From Gemmatimonadales bacterium (GTDB lineage Bacteria > Gemmatimonadota > Gemmatimonadetes > Gemmatimonadales > GWC2-71-9): a stretch of DNA of 64,000 nt. The first letter of the stretch is position 1, and each line of letters starts with the position of its first letter. The stretch covers positions 1,492 to 65,491 of the forward strand of contig JBQTHV010000015.1 of assembly GCA_052389555.1 (NCBI GenBank), written 5' to 3'. Of this stretch, positions 42,021-48,191 are shown piece after piece. Under the pieces are notes generated by a model. That model saw only the letters and a list, made by a program, of their open reading frames with translations, searched no databases and was not told the origin of the DNA. Position numbers and translations under genes: made by a program.

Positions 42021-42967
42021 ATCTCGGCAAGGACCTCGTTGGTCTCGAGTACTTGAGTGCCGACCAGATCCGCCTCATCCTGGATACCGCCGAGCCGTTC
42101 AAAGAGGTGAGCGAGCGGCCCATCAAAAAGGTCCCGGCGCTCCGCGGCAAGACCATCGTGAATCTGTTCTACGAGCCCTCGACCCGCACCCGGATCTCCT
42201 TCGAGTTCGCTGAGAAACGCCTGTCGGCGGACACGGTGAACGTGGCGACCGACGTTTCCTCCGTCTCCAAGGGCGAGAACCTGGTCGATACCGCGCGGAA
42301 TCTCGAGGCGATGCGGATCGACATGGTGGTCATCCGCCATCCCTCGAGCGGCGCCGCGCAGTTCCTGGCGTCCCGGATTCGCTCCAACGTGATCAACGCG
42401 GGCGACGGCAAGCATGAGCATCCCACCCAAGGGCTGTTGGATCTCCTCACTCTGCGCGACCGATTCGGTCGGATCGAAGGGCTCAAGGTCGCGATTTGCG
42501 GGGACGTGATGCACAGCCGGGTGGCCCGGAGCAACATCTGGGGCCTCCTCAAGCTCGGTGCCGAGGTGGCGGTGTGCGGCCCGGCGACCCTGATCCCGCG
42601 CGAGCTGGCCCAGCTCGGGGTGCAGATCCTTCCGCGCATCGAGGACGCGATCGGCTGGGCCGATGCGCTCAACGTGCTGCGGCTCCAGCTCGAGCGCATG
42701 GAAGCGGGTTATGTCCCGTCGCTGCGCGAATACAACCGCGTCTTCGGTGTCACGCGGGATCGGCTGGCCCGCGCCCCGAGGGACCTCGTCATCCTGCATC
42801 CAGGCCCGATGAATCGCGGGGTCGAGATCGATAGTGACGTGGCGGACGGCCCCCACAGCGTCATCCTTCCCCAGGTCACCAATGGGGTCGCGGTGCGGAT
42901 GGCGGTGCTCTACCTCCTCGCCGGCGGCGGCCCCGACTGGCGGGCGCCCGCCGGAGACGAGCGGTGA
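42017..42967 (+). CDS. pyrB: aspartate carbamoyltransferase catalytic subunit
   Basis: [11 protein letters not shown] and [10 protein letters not shown] signatures. Confidence 0.95.
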
Positions 42968-44313
42968 ATCCCCTGCTGATCCGCGGGGGACGGGTCATCG
43001 ACCCTTCGCGCGACTTCGATGCACCCGCCGACCTGCTCATCAAGGGCGGCCGGATCGAAGCAGTCGGCCGCAACCTCCCGCTCGAGCCGGGAACGGAAAC
43101 GATCGACGCCTCGGGGAAAGTGGTCGCGCCGGGCCTGATCGATCTCCACGTCCATCTGCGCGAACCGGGGTTCGAGCACGCCGAAACGATCGCGAGCGGC
43201 GCCGCGGCCGCCGTGGCGGGCGGGTTCACCACCGTGTGCGCGATGCCTAACACGGACCCGGTGACCGACAGTCCGGCCTCGGTCGGCTTCGTGCTGCGCC
43301 AGGCGATTCGCGCCGGGCTCGCGCGCGTGTATCCCATCGGGGCGGTCTCCCTCGCTCAGAAAGGCGAGCAGCTGACCGAGTTCGGCGAGCTGGTCCAGGC
43401 GGGCGCCGTCGCGGTCAGTGACGACGGCAATCCGGTGCGCACCAGCCATCTCATGCGCACGGCACTCGAATACGCGAAGACCTTCGGTATCCCCGTGGCC
43501 GACCACTGCGAGGATCTCTCCCTCTCGCAAGGTGGATCCATGCACGAGGGGATCGTCTCGGTGCGGCTGGGCCTCAAGGGCATCCCCGCGGCGGCGGAGG
43601 AGATCATCGTGGCGCGAGACATTCTCCTGGCCGGGCTGACCGGAGGTCACGTTCACCTCTGCCACATTTCTACTCGAGGATCGGTCGGACTCATCCGCCG
43701 GGCCAAGGAGCAAGGCATCCCGGTCACTGCCGAGGCGACACCCCATCACTTCACCCTCACGCACGAGCGGTGTGATGGGTATGACACCAACGCCAAAATG
43801 AATCCGCCGCTTCGTGAGGCCGCCGACCGCGACGCGATTCGTGAAGGCCTCCGCGATGGAACCATCGACTGCATCGCGACCGACCACGCGCCGCACCACT
43901 ACGACGCCAAAGAGCGGGAGTTCGACGAGGCCCCGAACGGCATCATTGGGCTCGAGACTGCCCTTGGCCTGGGAATTCGAGAGCTGGTGGAGCCCGGCCA
44001 CCTGTCCTTGCCCGAGCTGATTGGCCGCATGAGCACGATTCCGGCCCGGGTCTTTCAGCTCGGCGGGGGCACCCTGGCCATCGGTGCGCCCGCGGACGTG
44101 GTGGTTTTTGATCCAAGCCGGCGGTGGGTGTTCCGCAAGGAAGCGCTCCGATCCCTGAGCGCTAACTCCCCCTTTCTGGGGGAGACCATGGTGGGACAGG
44201 TGGACCTGACGCTGGTGGGCGGGAGGATTGTGTTCGACATCCGGGCCGTCAGGTTAGTGGCACCAATATACTTGACACACCACGGCCCTGATGGTATCTT
44301 GGGGTATGCTTAA
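42964..44313 (+). CDS. pyrC: dihydroorotase (C-terminal tail rewritten by IS insertion)
   Basis: Metal-binding [10 protein letters not shown] and the DHAPH motif. The last 17 codons read into the IS left end (see findings). Confidence 0.9.
44251..44258. repeat. target-site duplication, left copy (AGGTTAGT)
   Basis: An identical 8-mer directly flanks the outer ends of both terminal IRs. Confidence 0.75.
44259..44285. repeat. IS terminal inverted repeat, left (IR-L)
   Basis: ggcaccaatatacttgacacaccacgg. Confidence 0.8.
44272..44300 (+). promoter_or_regulatory. putative sigma70-type promoter of the transposase gene
   Basis: TTGACA (44272-77), 17 nt, TATCTT (44295-300). The ATG lies only 5 nt further on, so the mRNA would be leaderless or near-leaderless. 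Confidence 0.4.
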
Positions 44314-45280
44314 GTTTCCTCATACTCCCGTCACCCTGGCCGACGCCATTACTTACTTCGCGGACCAGGACAACGCGCTCCGGTTTCTGGCCGAATTGCG
44401 CTGGCCAGACGGCGTGAAATGCCCCCATTGCGGGGCCGATGATCCCGGCTTCCTGGCCTCCCGACGCATCTGGAAGTGCCGGGCGAAGGAATGCCGGAAA
44501 CAGTTCTCCATCAAAGTGGGGACGATCTTCGAGGATTCCCCGCTCGGGCTCGACAAGTGGCTCCCGGCCCTCTGGCTGCTCGCCAACAGCAAGAACGGCA
44601 TTTCGAGTTACGAGCTGGCCCGCGCCCTCGACGTGACCCAAAAGACTGCGTGGTTCATGCTCGGGCGCATCCGGGCGGCGATGGCGACCCGGACCTTTGC
44701 GCGATTCGAGGGCGAGATTGAGATGGACGAGGCATTCTTCGGCGGGCTTTACAAGAACATGCACCAGTCGAAGCGGAAGCGGCTCGGCTCCGGGCAGGGT
44801 CAGCGGAACAAGATCGGTGTCTTGGGCGTTCTCCAGCGGCCCAAGACTCGGAGCCATGTGAGCCAATTCCAGGGCTCGGTGATCGGCCCCGACCGGGAGA
44901 TGAAGCATCTCGGGCTCCGGGTGCGCTCGCTGGTGCAGGAAGGGAGCCGCCTCTATACCGACGAGGACAAACACTACCAACTGCTCCAGCAGCGCTACAT
45001 CCGAGAGATCATCAATCACGCTCGGGAGTACGTCCGCGGGAAGGTCCACACCAATGGCGTTGAGAACTTCTGGAGCCTGTTGAAGCGCACCATTAAAGGC
45101 ACCTACGTGAGCGTGGACCCGTTCCATTTCTTCCGCTACCTCGATGAGCAGGTGTTCCGGTTCAATAACCGGCGAGCCAGCGACGGAGACCGCTTCGTGG
45201 CGATGGTAGATTCCCTGCTCGGCACTCGGCTGACCTGGAAGGGACTCACCGGCAAGGACATGAGTCCGGCTACGACGTGA
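44306..45280 (+). CDS. IS1595-family transposase (ISXO2-like)
   Basis: N-terminal transposase zinc ribbon (LRWPDGVKCPHCG...WKCRAKECRKQFS), then ISXO2-like DDE region (EMDEAFFGG.., LYTDEDKHY, HTNGVENFWSLLKR). Confidence 0.9.
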   Translation: MLKFPHTPVTLADAITYFADQDNALRFLAELRWPDGVKCPHCGADDPGFLASRRIWKCRAKECRKQFSIKVGTIFEDSPLGLDKWLPALWLLANSKNGISSYELARALDVTQKTAWFMLGRIRAAMATRTFARFEGEIEMDEAFFGGLYKNMHQSKRKRLGSGQGQRNKIGVLGVLQRPKTRSHVSQFQGSVIGPDREMKHLGLRVRSLVQEGSRLYTDEDKHYQLLQQRYIREIINHAREYVRGKVHTNGVENFWSLLKRTIKGTYVSVDPFHFFRYLDEQVFRFNNRRASDGDRFVAMVDSLLGTRLTWKGLTGKDMSPATT

Positions 45281-45331
45281 CGCGGCCCGCAAGCCTCAAC
45301 TGAGACGGGGGCCACGACGAAAGAGGAAGCC

Positions 45332-45478
45332 ATGAAACCGACTCACAAGGCTCCGGCGGAAACGCCGGGGCCGTCGGCCTTTGAGCGGATGCGAGAACTG
45401 ACGCGACGGATCATCAATGTCCCGAAGTCTGAGATTCCTCCCAAACCAAAAGCCAAACAAAAGAGGCGACGAGCCTAG
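45332..45478 (+). CDS. possible 48-aa basic protein inside the IS
   Basis: SD gaaagaggaag 3 nt before the ATG. MKPTHKAPAETPGPSAFERMRELTRRIINVPKSEIPPKPKAKQKRRRA. The 3' end overlaps the RelA/SpoT stop by 4 nt, convergently. Too short for the ORF track. Confidence 0.35.
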   Translation: MKPTHKAPAETPGPSAFERMRELTRRIINVPKSEIPPKPKAKQKRRRA

Positions 45479-46605
45479 GCAAGAGCCTCCCGCAATTCGG
45501 CCATAAAGGCGGTCGTATCAGCGTAGAAACTCGGGTAAGCCTGCCTTAGAGCGCGTATTGAGGCCACCGATACCAATACGGCGTGTCTTTGCGGATCGCG
45601 GATGATCTGCTTTTCAATCTCGGCATAATCAGTCTCCGCCTTCTGTTGCGCGTCCAATGTGTACTGATGCCAGAACAATTCGCCCTTCGCAATATCAAGC
45701 GTTAGCAGGAAGGTGCGGGCCCCTGAAATCTTCTCGGGCCGCGATTCAGTAACGATCATGCTCCAGGCAGAGAATCGCTTCTCAACCTGCAAGGCCCCCG
45801 CAATCTGACGTAGCTCTTTCTTAATAGCCGTCACCCGCAGGGGAAGGCCTGGCGGAACTGGTCGCCGCTCTTTGAGGGCGAACACTCCGCCCATCAATAA
45901 GAAAAAACGCTTCCACGGCTCTTCCCCCACGCTCGATTTCAACGCCTGAGTAGTGAATAGATCCACCGTCTCAACTGCCGTTGCCCATTCGTGCTGGAGG
46001 CGAGATCGAAGCTGCACTTCAACTCTCAAGCCGTGGAACTTGTCGTATTTCGCGTATTGGGTATGATATTTGGAGACTAGGTGGATTCCTCGGTATCCGT
46101 CAGCTTTGGGATTCTTGATGTAATCGTATCTTTCAATCAACTCCGATTGGTGCTTCTGGCGACGTTCGGAAGCCCGACGATAGGCTTCATCTAGACGTTC
46201 GACCATTTGATTGGTTCGGAGAACGGCTCGGCAACCACCAATATCCTGCATCTGGGCAAGTTTCATCCTGCGAAAACGTCGCAGTTTTGTTAGTATGGCG
46301 ATCATCCTCTTGAGCCGTTGGGAAATGAGAGCTTCCCTGTCAACCTTCCTCGCACGGTCCATCAATGTGATGCGAGCTGAAAGCAGCGGCCAACTATGGG
46401 ATGAGCGCCAATTGCTGATGATCTTGAATGCCTCATCTGTCTTGCCTAGGAACTGGTGGAACTCATCTTTGCTATCAAAACCTGGGGGACGACTCTCCAG
46501 CTCGTGAGCCAAGTAATCGCCCGCTGCGTCAACCTTGGTACGGGAGAATTGCGGAGTGACCCAAGCCACCTCAGACAGCCTCGGACGAGGGGGAGCGATC
46601 AACAT
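45475..46605 (-). CDS. RelA/SpoT-domain nucleotide pyrophosphokinase (small alarmone synthetase / toxSAS-like) with about 160-aa C-terminal domain of unknown function
   Basis: Synthetase motifs RLKRMIAILTKL, MQDIGGCRAV, ADGYRGIHLV and EVQLRSRLQHEWA. No hydrolase (HD) domain. About half G+C by eye. Confidence 0.85.
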   Translation of the reverse strand: MLIAPPRPRLSEVAWVTPQFSRTKVDAAGDYLAHELESRPPGFDSKDEFHQFLGKTDEAFKIISNWRSSHSWPLLSARITLMDRARKVDREALISQRLKRMIAILTKLRRFRRMKLAQMQDIGGCRAVLRTNQMVERLDEAYRRASERRQKHQSELIERYDYIKNPKADGYRGIHLVSKYHTQYAKYDKFHGLRVEVQLRSRLQHEWATAVETVDLFTTQALKSSVGEEPWKRFFLLMGGVFALKERRPVPPGLPLRVTAIKKELRQIAGALQVEKRFSAWSMIVTESRPEKISGARTFLLTLDIAKGELFWHQYTLDAQQKAETDYAEIEKQIIRDPQRHAVLVSVASIRALRQAYPSFYADTTAFMAELREALA

Positions 46606-46615
46606 AACCCCTCAG

Positions 46616-46642
46616 CCCTGGTGTGTCTAGTAAGTTGGTGCC
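46616..46642. repeat. IS terminal inverted repeat, right (IR-R)
   Basis: ccctggtgtgtctagtaagttggtgcc. Its reverse complement, ggcaccaacttactagacacaccaggg, matches IR-L. Confidence 0.8.
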
Positions 46643-46650
46643 AGGTTAGT
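46643..46650. repeat. target-site duplication, right copy (AGGTTAGT)
   Basis: Identical to 44251-44258. Confidence 0.75.
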
Positions 46651-47823: not shown

Positions 47824-48191
47824 ATGGCCACCCTGATTCGAACCTACCAAGATTTAATCGTCTGGCAAAAATCGATGGATCTTGCCCTGATAGTGCTCAG
47901 GTTGGCTGCACGCTTGAAGGGTGCGCGCTCTTATGTGCTTGCTGATCAGCTCGAGCGCTCGGCCATCTCCATCCCTTCAAATCTGGCGGAAGGTCATGGA
48001 CGAAGATCTCGTGCCGAGTTTCGGCGATATGTCGCCGTTGCGAATGCTTCCCTGCGGGAGTTGGAAACCCAGCTGAGCTCCTGAGGCGGTACTGCCCGCG
48101 GGTGGCCCAAAGAGTCAGTCGGATTCTCGTGGGCACTGATGAGATAGGACGGATGCTCAATACCCTGCATCACCGCCTGGGGACTTCATAA
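47824..48191 (+). pseudogene. four-helix-bundle protein gene (23S rRNA intervening-sequence protein family), frameshifted
   Basis: Frame 1 gives YQDLIVWQKSMDL...IPSNLAEGHGR...ASLRELETQL, then a stop. The family C-terminus (..ILVGTDEIGRMLNTLHHRL) continues in frame 3 to TAA at 48189-48191. Confidence 0.8.

Follow-up and report, generated by a model that had tools for sequence, protein, structure and literature searches.

A fused CapRel-family toxin-antitoxin gene within an IS1595-family element at the 3' end of pyrC in a Gemmatimonadales bacterium

The stretch of DNA analyzed here, referred to below as the window, comprises 64,000 nucleotides of a Gemmatimonadales contig (JBQTHV010000015.1, positions 1,492 to 65,491; assembly GCA_052389555.1) and contains a gene that is almost certainly an insertion sequence (IS)-borne member of the CapRel family, in which a toxic small alarmone synthetase (toxSAS) and its antitoxin are fused in one polypeptide. 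The explanation that best accounts for our observations, and in which we have considerable confidence, is that an IS1595-family element inserted at the 3' end of the dihydroorotase gene (pyrC) and carries a fused CapRel that would act by the mechanism proposed below. A preliminary description, made from the letters of the sequence and their translation, had suggested a CapRel-like toxSAS of this fused kind on an IS, and our analysis bears this out through full-length similarity to CapRel^SJ46, membership in the PADLOC family PDC-S33, a best structural match to PDB entry 7ZTB and the retention of catalytic and autoinhibition residues. The same description regarded the last 160 or so residues as an uncharacterized domain without a recognizable motif, whose sensor would be new. 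This part has to be revised, since the region shares homology with the antitoxin/sensor domain of CapRel, the known pseudo-zinc-finger domain (pseudo-ZFD) with its anchor helices and YXX(Y/F) motif.

The family assignment is based on searches with the complete protein. In a phmmer search against all PDB sequences, query residues 55-367 align to residues 35-362 of the 373-residue chain of 7ZTB/9ERV (E 4e-36), 7ZTB being CapRel^SJ46, a fused toxin-antitoxin encoded by Salmonella phage SJ46. The score for CapRel^SJ46 is 128 bits, versus about 30 bits for RelQ, RelP and YjbM, which align to residues 93-213 alone, and this wide margin of CapRel^SJ46 over all other RelA/SpoT homologues of known structure served as our proxy for subfamily placement. 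The NCBIfam YjbM model (NF053588) gives 44.6 bits and does not reach its equivalog cutoff of 320; with these core-only matches, placement among the RelQ, RelP or RelV enzymes, which the preliminary description had named as an outcome that would speak against a fused toxSAS, is rejected. In addition, the PADLOC PDC-S33 profile hidden Markov model (PDLC04999) matches the window protein with an E-value of 2e-105 (351 bits; residues 14-375 on model positions 2-342 of 349) and CapRel^SJ46 itself with 7e-87 (290 bits). What PADLOC lists as the 'phage defence candidate' PDC-S33 is therefore the family of fused CapRels, of which the window protein is, as judged from these profile matches, a typical member. 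The protein also matches phrog_4773 (1e-85). Identity to CapRel^SJ46 is 34.5% overall, 37% in the toxSYNTH domain and 22.6% in the pseudo-ZFD; the window gene is a new, divergent member of an already characterized family and not a new kind of sensor.

The longest open reading frame (ORF), 45475..46605 on the minus strand, encodes 376 amino acids and was found exactly as first described, together with the synthetase motifs RLKRMIAILTKL, DIGGCR, YRGIHLV and EVQLRS..QHEWA and the C-terminus ..LRQAYPSFYADTTAFMAELREALA. RelA_SpoT (PF04607; residues 96-209, E 3.6e-13) is the sole Pfam domain, in agreement with the earlier statement that HD, TGS and ACT domains are absent. The protein is most likely 364 amino acids long, starting at GTG 46569, which is codon 13 of the longest ORF, so that the gene as we define it spans 45475..46569 on the minus strand. 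This start, already raised in the preliminary description, is favored because a promoter-like site in the right inverted repeat of the element extends over the ATG (46605-46603); the gene as predicted in the database (P0001, 364 amino acids from the same GTG), the PADLOC profile alignment, which begins at residue 14, and the N-terminus of the closest homologue, which matches the position of the GTG start, all agree with it. There is no conserved same-strand gene beside the CapRel gene that could be a candidate for a separate antitoxin. The claim of a single-gene system thus holds up, since the sole conserved small ORF nearby lies on the opposite strand and belongs to the IS backbone, which also carries it together with unrelated cargo genes.

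Zhang et al. (2022; PMC9712102) described R79 and R116 of CapRel^SJ46 as coordinating adenine and Y155 of the G-loop as catalytic, and attributed neutralization to a YXXY motif (Y352 and Y355) and to the interface residues A77, V338, L339, A341 and A351. In the window protein (376-residue numbering), the RelA/SpoT nucleotidyltransferase core (45979..46320, minus strand; residues 96-209, PF04607) contains the counterparts of the first three as R97, R126 and the G-loop Y171, while V338, L339, A351 and Y352 correspond to V343, L344, A356 and Y357. Three positions differ, Y355 being replaced by F360, A77 by S95 and A341 by S346. Among 116 relatives, R97, R126, G170, Y171, V343 and L344 are invariant (116/116), and A356 is kept in 114. 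Position 357 is Tyr in 103 of these relatives and Phe in 13, and position 360 is Tyr in 92 and Phe in 24. The YPSF sequence of the window protein (45526..45537, minus strand; residues 357-360), identified as the counterpart of the autoinhibitory YXXY by alignment with CapRel^SJ46 and checked in the translation, is by these counts a common family variant of the motif; F360 directly precedes Y361.

The predicted structure leads to the same family. An AlphaFold2 model computed with 116 homologues as input has a predicted local distance difference test score (pLDDT) of 93.5 and a predicted template modeling score (pTM) of 0.90, and the top three Foldseek matches in the PDB are 7ztb_B, 7ztb_A and 9erv_A (E 1e-22 to 2.5e-21, template modeling (TM) score 0.64-0.68, about 375 columns). 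RelQ and RelP rank behind the CapRel^SJ46 chains, with a TMq of about 0.35. The structure comparison suggested in the preliminary description thus returns CapRel^SJ46 (7ZTB) as the best fold match, with whole-chain TM scores of 0.65-0.68 and a predicted pseudo-ZFD topology. In the model, the C-terminal part (364-residue numbering) consists of a helix at 246-272, strands at 286-292 and 297-303, a helix at 305-324, a strand at 328-334 and a helix at 338-363. Its overall order is two anchor helices, a beta-beta-alpha-beta unit, short helices and a terminal helix. The pseudo-ZFD of CapRel has been described as a three-stranded antiparallel sheet with a helix between strands 2 and 3, without Cys ligands and with anchor helices (PMC9712102), and residues 258-376 of the window protein (376-residue numbering) contain no cysteine. 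The C-terminal region is thus predicted to have the published CapRel pseudo-zinc-finger antitoxin topology, with the sensor/antitoxin subdomain, delimited by the secondary structure of the model, at residues 298-346 (45568..45714, minus strand). The root-mean-square deviation from 7ZTB is high (about 10 Å) despite the good TM-score, a combination from which we would only infer that the domains in the model may be arranged unlike those of the open crystal form.

The pseudo-ZFD is also the part of the protein that has diverged most. Across the 116 relatives, residues ~283-342 are the least conserved, which matches the published view of the sensor subdomain as the fast-evolving part. The CapRel^SJ46 residues that contact the trigger, L280 and L307, are not kept and are replaced by R289 and T316. 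Given these replacements and the divergence of the subdomain, the SJ46 trigger should not be transferred to the window CapRel. The triggers reported so far vary even between close CapRels: CapRel^SJ46 responds to the major capsid protein and to Gp54 of phage Bas11, and CapRel^Ebc to T7 Gp0.4 with FtsZ.

The CapRel gene is located within an IS1595-family element of 2,384 bp (44259-46642). The left inverted repeat (IR-L; 44259..44301, GGCACCAATATACTTGACACACCA...) fits the consensus of sister elements, GGCAAnAAnATACTTGAC, and IR-R (46600..46642) is an imperfect inverted repeat of IR-L, the two being 75% complementary over 44 nt. The element is bracketed by an 8-bp target-site duplication (TSD), AGGTTAGT, whose left (44251..44258) and right (46643..46650) copies match at 8/8 positions and allow only one choice of boundary. 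The 329-residue DDE transposase (44291..45280, plus strand) matches DDE_Tnp_IS1595 over the full Pfam profile (2.5e-33), Zn_ribbon_IS1595 at its N-terminal zinc ribbon (1.1e-12) and the NCBIfam model transpos_IS1595 with 171 bits against a cutoff of 75. Each IR contains an inward-facing site that resembles a sigma-70 promoter: TTGACA-17-TATCTT in IR-L (44272..44300, plus strand; 10/12) and TAGACA-17-TATGTT in IR-R, directed towards CapRel (46601..46629, minus strand; 9/12). The -35 box coincides with the TTGAC that the sister elements share in their IR consensus, and each site overlaps the first ATG of the ORF downstream of it, so that the transposase, like CapRel, may start later, at ATG 44306. 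The G+C content is 0.531 in the CapRel gene and 0.573 in the whole IS, compared with 0.665 and 0.688 in the flanks. The earlier view of the gene as a low-G+C, IS-borne acquisition is supported by this trough, by the IRs, TSD and transposase, and by an empty site in a relative.

The empty site was found in a syntenic Gemmatimonadales contig without the element (L125), in which the gene order is SelB-ClpB-TopA-MgtE-PyrR-PyrB-PyrC-293-aa protein-S20-M50. When positions 44259-46650 are removed from the window in silico, the remaining sequence is collinear with this contig across the junction (70.2% over 698 nt), and the empty site holds a single copy of the target sequence AGGTTAGT. The IS lies at the extreme 3' end of pyrC, where about 16 non-conserved terminal codons have been replaced, and the effect of the insertion on the PyrC enzyme is probably small. 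The pyrC frame (42964-44313, plus strand) now reads into IR-L, and its original end can be reconstructed as ...VRLVDGLDLNRFRAGR*.

A CapRel gene, a small ORF and a transposase in this layout were found at nine or more other loci. In a metagenomic sample of 80 loci that encode CapRel relatives with 39-47% identity, an IS1595-type transposase adjoins CapRel at 13, and at 8 of the 34 loci that have at least 1.3 kb of sequence on both flanks. Among 30 genomic loci from GTDB representative genomes, a transposase lies beside CapRel in one, a Deltaproteobacteria metagenome-assembled genome (MAG; L004). In seven elements other than that of the window (L004, L035, L042, L046, L064, L069 and L094), IRs of the type GGCAAnAAnATACTTGAC and perfect 8-bp TSDs bracket CapRel together with the transposase, the elements being 2.3-3.7 kb in length; an eighth, L068, has a TSD that matches at 6/8 positions. 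The second-closest homologue, P0003, is encoded by a sibling element (L128) whose transposase, CapRel and small ORF are 69%, 64% and 61% identical to those of the window and whose contig starts exactly at the IR. The closest homologue (P0002, 67% identity; L001) has IR-R-like DNA upstream (L001:3380-3500), and no transposase or IR-L nearby, so this locus is apparently a decayed or immobilized copy of the element. Synteny between that locus and the window, considered because both genes lie beside an amidohydrolase gene, was rejected, as its neighbors are unrelated to those of the window. Many members of the wider CapRel family also come from viral and prophage contigs (141 matches), but IS linkage is seen in only about 3 of the 80 loci retrieved.

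Some sister elements depart from the basic layout. The larger ones (3.0-3.7 kb; L042, 1561-4724; L094, 1672-5342; L035, 3885-6845) carry extra ORFs that separate CapRel from the small ORF or the transposase, such as those for a 194-residue protein in L042 and a 182-residue protein in L094; neither has a PADLOC match, and the former has no Pfam match. At L059 (2737-5062) and L088 (2734-5053) the transposase is upstream of CapRel on the same strand rather than convergent with it; no convincing IR/TSD pair was found at these two loci, which may represent a rearranged variant of the element. Within the main group, transposases are 47-69% identical and the CapRel cargo 39-62%, and these values would fit an ancient co-inheritance with fast evolution of the cargo as well as a repeated capture or exchange of cargo.

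Between the transposase and CapRel there is a conserved small ORF of 48 amino acids (45332..45478, plus strand; MKPTHKAP..FERMRELTRRIINVPKSEI.., with a basic tail), preceded by a good Shine-Dalgarno sequence. It matches no Pfam, PHROG or PADLOC family. At least 12 CapRel-IS elements have a homologue between CapRel and transposase, pointing either way, and these homologues share the motif F-E/D-x-F...(V/A)-P-(K/R/H)-x-E-(I/L) followed by a basic tail. A profile search with this small-ORF family recovers 1,845 proteins of 50-65 amino acids, all unannotated. Each of the four members that were looked up adjoins an IS1595 transposase, the order being [cargo][small ORF][transposase] with the transposase convergent, and the cargo differs from one to the next: a 310-residue protein of unknown function that occurs on many contigs (L113:1000-1932), a DUF3800 protein (L118:2717-3532) and proteins of 217 (L122:2836-3489) and 190 residues (L123:2817-3389), again of unknown function. 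These alternative cargos have no PADLOC, PHROG or significant PDB match, and Pfam recognizes one of them only, as DUF3800. The possibility that the small ORF encodes a CapRel-specific antitoxin was rejected, because the cargo it accompanies can be unrelated, because it always adjoins an IS1595 transposase and because its orientation varies. The small ORF is an IS-backbone gene, possibly for an accessory or regulatory protein, and for this reason the reading of CapRel as a single-gene, fused system is left intact.

These observations also allow a broader and more tentative reading, which we consider rather doubtful at present: a widespread IS1595 'shuttle' lineage in which a fixed backbone (IRs with inward promoters, transposase and the basic protein of about 50 amino acids) is combined with an exchangeable slot for single-gene toxin or immunity cargo, occupied by CapRel here and by DUF3800 or unknown proteins elsewhere. 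If this were true, we would be dealing with new defence genes in the case of the unknown cargos and with a new accessory or regulatory factor of the IS in that of the small ORF, and the window CapRel would sense a trigger unrelated to the known ones.

Our proposal for how the window CapRel works follows CapRel^SJ46. The toxSYNTH domain would, by homology, transfer pyrophosphate from ATP to the 3'-CCA end of tRNAs and so stop translation. In an uninfected cell the C-terminal pseudo-ZFD would dock on the active site, with the YPSF turn (Y357/F360) blocking the adenine pocket. A phage-made protein would then bind the variable pseudo-ZFD, keep the enzyme open and relieve autoinhibition, and the resulting arrest of translation would abort the infection. 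CapRel is probably transcribed from the promoter-like site in IR-R; a promoter inside the IR would allow the gene to be expressed wherever the IS lands. By analogy with CapRel^SJ46 we consider this full mechanism, including tRNA as the target and a phage protein as the trigger, to be fairly likely.

Several points weigh against this interpretation. The case for a CapRel mechanism in the window is built from homology, sequence and predicted structure, and overall the protein is just 34.5% identical to the characterized CapRel^SJ46, a value that falls to about 23% for the pseudo-ZFD. Phe (F360) takes the place of the second YXXY tyrosine, and Ser stands at both A77 and A341 of the interface, although at the A341 position most of the family also has Ser. 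As to present-day mobility, the 64-kb window contains only a single copy of the IS. Also, no significant co-divergence of CapRel and transposase was detected across 13 elements (Mantel r 0.18, p 0.21), a comparison in which the CapRel identities are compressed into the range of 39-62%.

Among other explanations, the passenger might serve the IS itself, as a selfish stabilization or addiction module or as a modulator of transposition, and have no meaningful part in phage defence. Toxin-antitoxin genes on mobile elements classically act as stabilizers, the gene is integral to a mobile element with promoter-like sites in its IRs, and the same IS lineage carries other cargos of unknown function that match no defence model. 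Post-segregational killing is, however, hard to envisage for a fused polypeptide without a separately degradable antitoxin; moreover, each of the three fused CapRels examined in PMC9712102 protects against phages, prophages often carry members of the family, and the sensor subdomain is its most variable part, as expected from a host-virus conflict. We therefore regard a purely selfish role as unlikely. A more specific question is whether the enzyme is instead a nucleotide-directed toxSAS, a (pp)pApp synthetase that, like FaRel or Tas1, depletes ATP rather than pyrophosphorylating tRNAs. The acceptor substrate cannot be assigned from sequence alone, and both kinds of toxSAS share one fold (PMC9712102; PMC11782079), yet among characterized proteins CapRel^SJ46, a tRNA pyrophosphokinase, is by far the closest relative, the CapRel subfamily is described as one that inhibits translation (PMC9712102), and no structure of the FaRel/Tas1 type appears among the PDB sequence matches at E <= 1, which makes this substrate distinctly improbable.

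That the gene encodes a housekeeping small alarmone synthetase of the RelQ, RelP or RelV type, making (p)ppGpp for stress signaling, might be suggested by the RelA_SpoT domain, the conserved catalytic motifs and the weak YjbM match, but that match is far below the model's cutoff (44.6 bits vs 320), RelQ and RelP reach about 30 bits over the core only, against 128 bits for CapRel, and the additional N- and C-terminal regions match CapRel over its full length. The gene is, in addition, low in G+C, inside an IS and absent from the syntenic relative, and the housekeeping alternative is effectively refuted. The gene could also be an inactive relic in a dead IS, a view to which the single copy in the window, the incomplete complementarity of the IRs (75% over 44 nt) and the decayed relatives L001, L122 and L123, which lack an intact transposase, lend something. 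Against it, the ORF is intact and keeps every residue that is invariant in the family, the transposase matches Pfam and NCBIfam profiles over their full length, and the perfect TSD points to a recent insertion; such a relic is thus very improbable. An IS-borne fused CapRel with a probable role in phage defence remains our preferred interpretation.

The window also contains genes for ClpB, TopA, SelB and ArgS, with TopA being 78-84% identical to Gemmatimonadales MAG proteins; the IS has inserted into the chromosome of an as yet uncultured member of the Gemmatimonadales. Downstream of the element, between the gene for a 311-residue zinc-ribbon protein and rpsT, an ORF of 86 amino acids (47824-48084, plus strand) encodes a '23S rRNA intervening sequence protein' (PF05635, 1.5e-25); the syntenic contig L125 lacks this ORF, which therefore probably represents a further small insertion.

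It is generally to be expected that mobile elements carry defence genes. The aspect that we did not find described in the literature searched is the recurrent IS1595 element that carries CapRel, with promoter-like sites in its IRs and a small backbone ORF: the searches revealed no description of CapRel cargo in IS1595-family elements and nothing relevant for PDC-S33, and the text of Zhang et al. (2022; PMC9712102) does not mention transposons or insertion sequences. A divergent CapRel from Gemmatimonadota extends a family that has been studied only in enterobacterial prophages to soil phyla, and the PADLOC 'candidate' PDC-S33 can now be identified with that family. A putatively phage-sensing gene inside a 2.4-kb IS, with what may be its own promoter, would rank among the smallest self-mobile defence units. 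The layout, which is found in about a quarter of the adequately flanked metagenomic relatives, could explain how such systems of a single gene move within a genome and from one genome to another without relying on prophages or defence islands. Also, the occurrence of the IS backbone with other unannotated cargo provides a short list of candidate toxin or defence genes.

With respect to known systems, the closest counterparts of the window protein are the fused CapRels, CapRel^SJ46 (7ZTB, 9ERV; PMC9712102), CapRel^Ebc and CapRel^Kp, which are likewise encoded by one ORF of about 365-375 amino acids, toxSYNTH forming the N-terminal domain and the pseudo-ZFD, together with its anchor helices, the C-terminal one. 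The window protein and CapRel^SJ46 have in common the ATP-binding arginines, the G-loop Tyr, the V-L interface pair and the A-Y-P-x-(Y/F) motif, as well as the PDC-S33 model, 7ZTB as the best fold and a variable sensor subdomain. They differ in the host, which is a soil-type Gemmatimonadales in one case and enterobacterial in the other, in the carrier (an IS1595-family element rather than a prophage), in the trigger-contact residues, where L280/L307 are R/T, and in the second Tyr of YXXY, which is Phe in the window. The bicistronic toxSAS pairs, PhRel/ATphRel of mycobacteriophage Phrann and FaRel2/ATfaRel2, resemble fused CapRel in that a toxin of the RelA/SpoT fold, which inhibits translation through tRNA pyrophosphorylation, is neutralized when a small domain occludes its ATP site (PMC9712102). 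In those pairs, however, toxin and antitoxin are separate proteins, whereas they are fused in the window, and PDB and phage sequence searches gave no significant direct match of the window protein to pairs of the PhRel/FaRel2 type. RelQ and RelP (5DEC, 6EWZ) share with it only the nucleotidyltransferase core at residues ~93-213; they lack a pseudo-ZFD and are encoded by chromosomal housekeeping genes, while the window gene is IS cargo.

The carrier, for its part, resembles the IS1595 family in its DDE_Tnp_IS1595 transposase with an N-terminal zinc ribbon, its 8-bp TSD and its terminal IRs beginning with GGC. IS1595-family elements that carry passenger genes are known as 'transporter IS' and form the '+' subgroups of ISPna2 and ISNwi1 in ISfinder. 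It is because of their cargo that the window element and its sister elements reach 2.3-3.7 kb, and what sets the window element apart from other IS1595 elements with passenger genes is the nature of that cargo, a CapRel gene of the defence type accompanied by a conserved ORF of about 50 amino acids.

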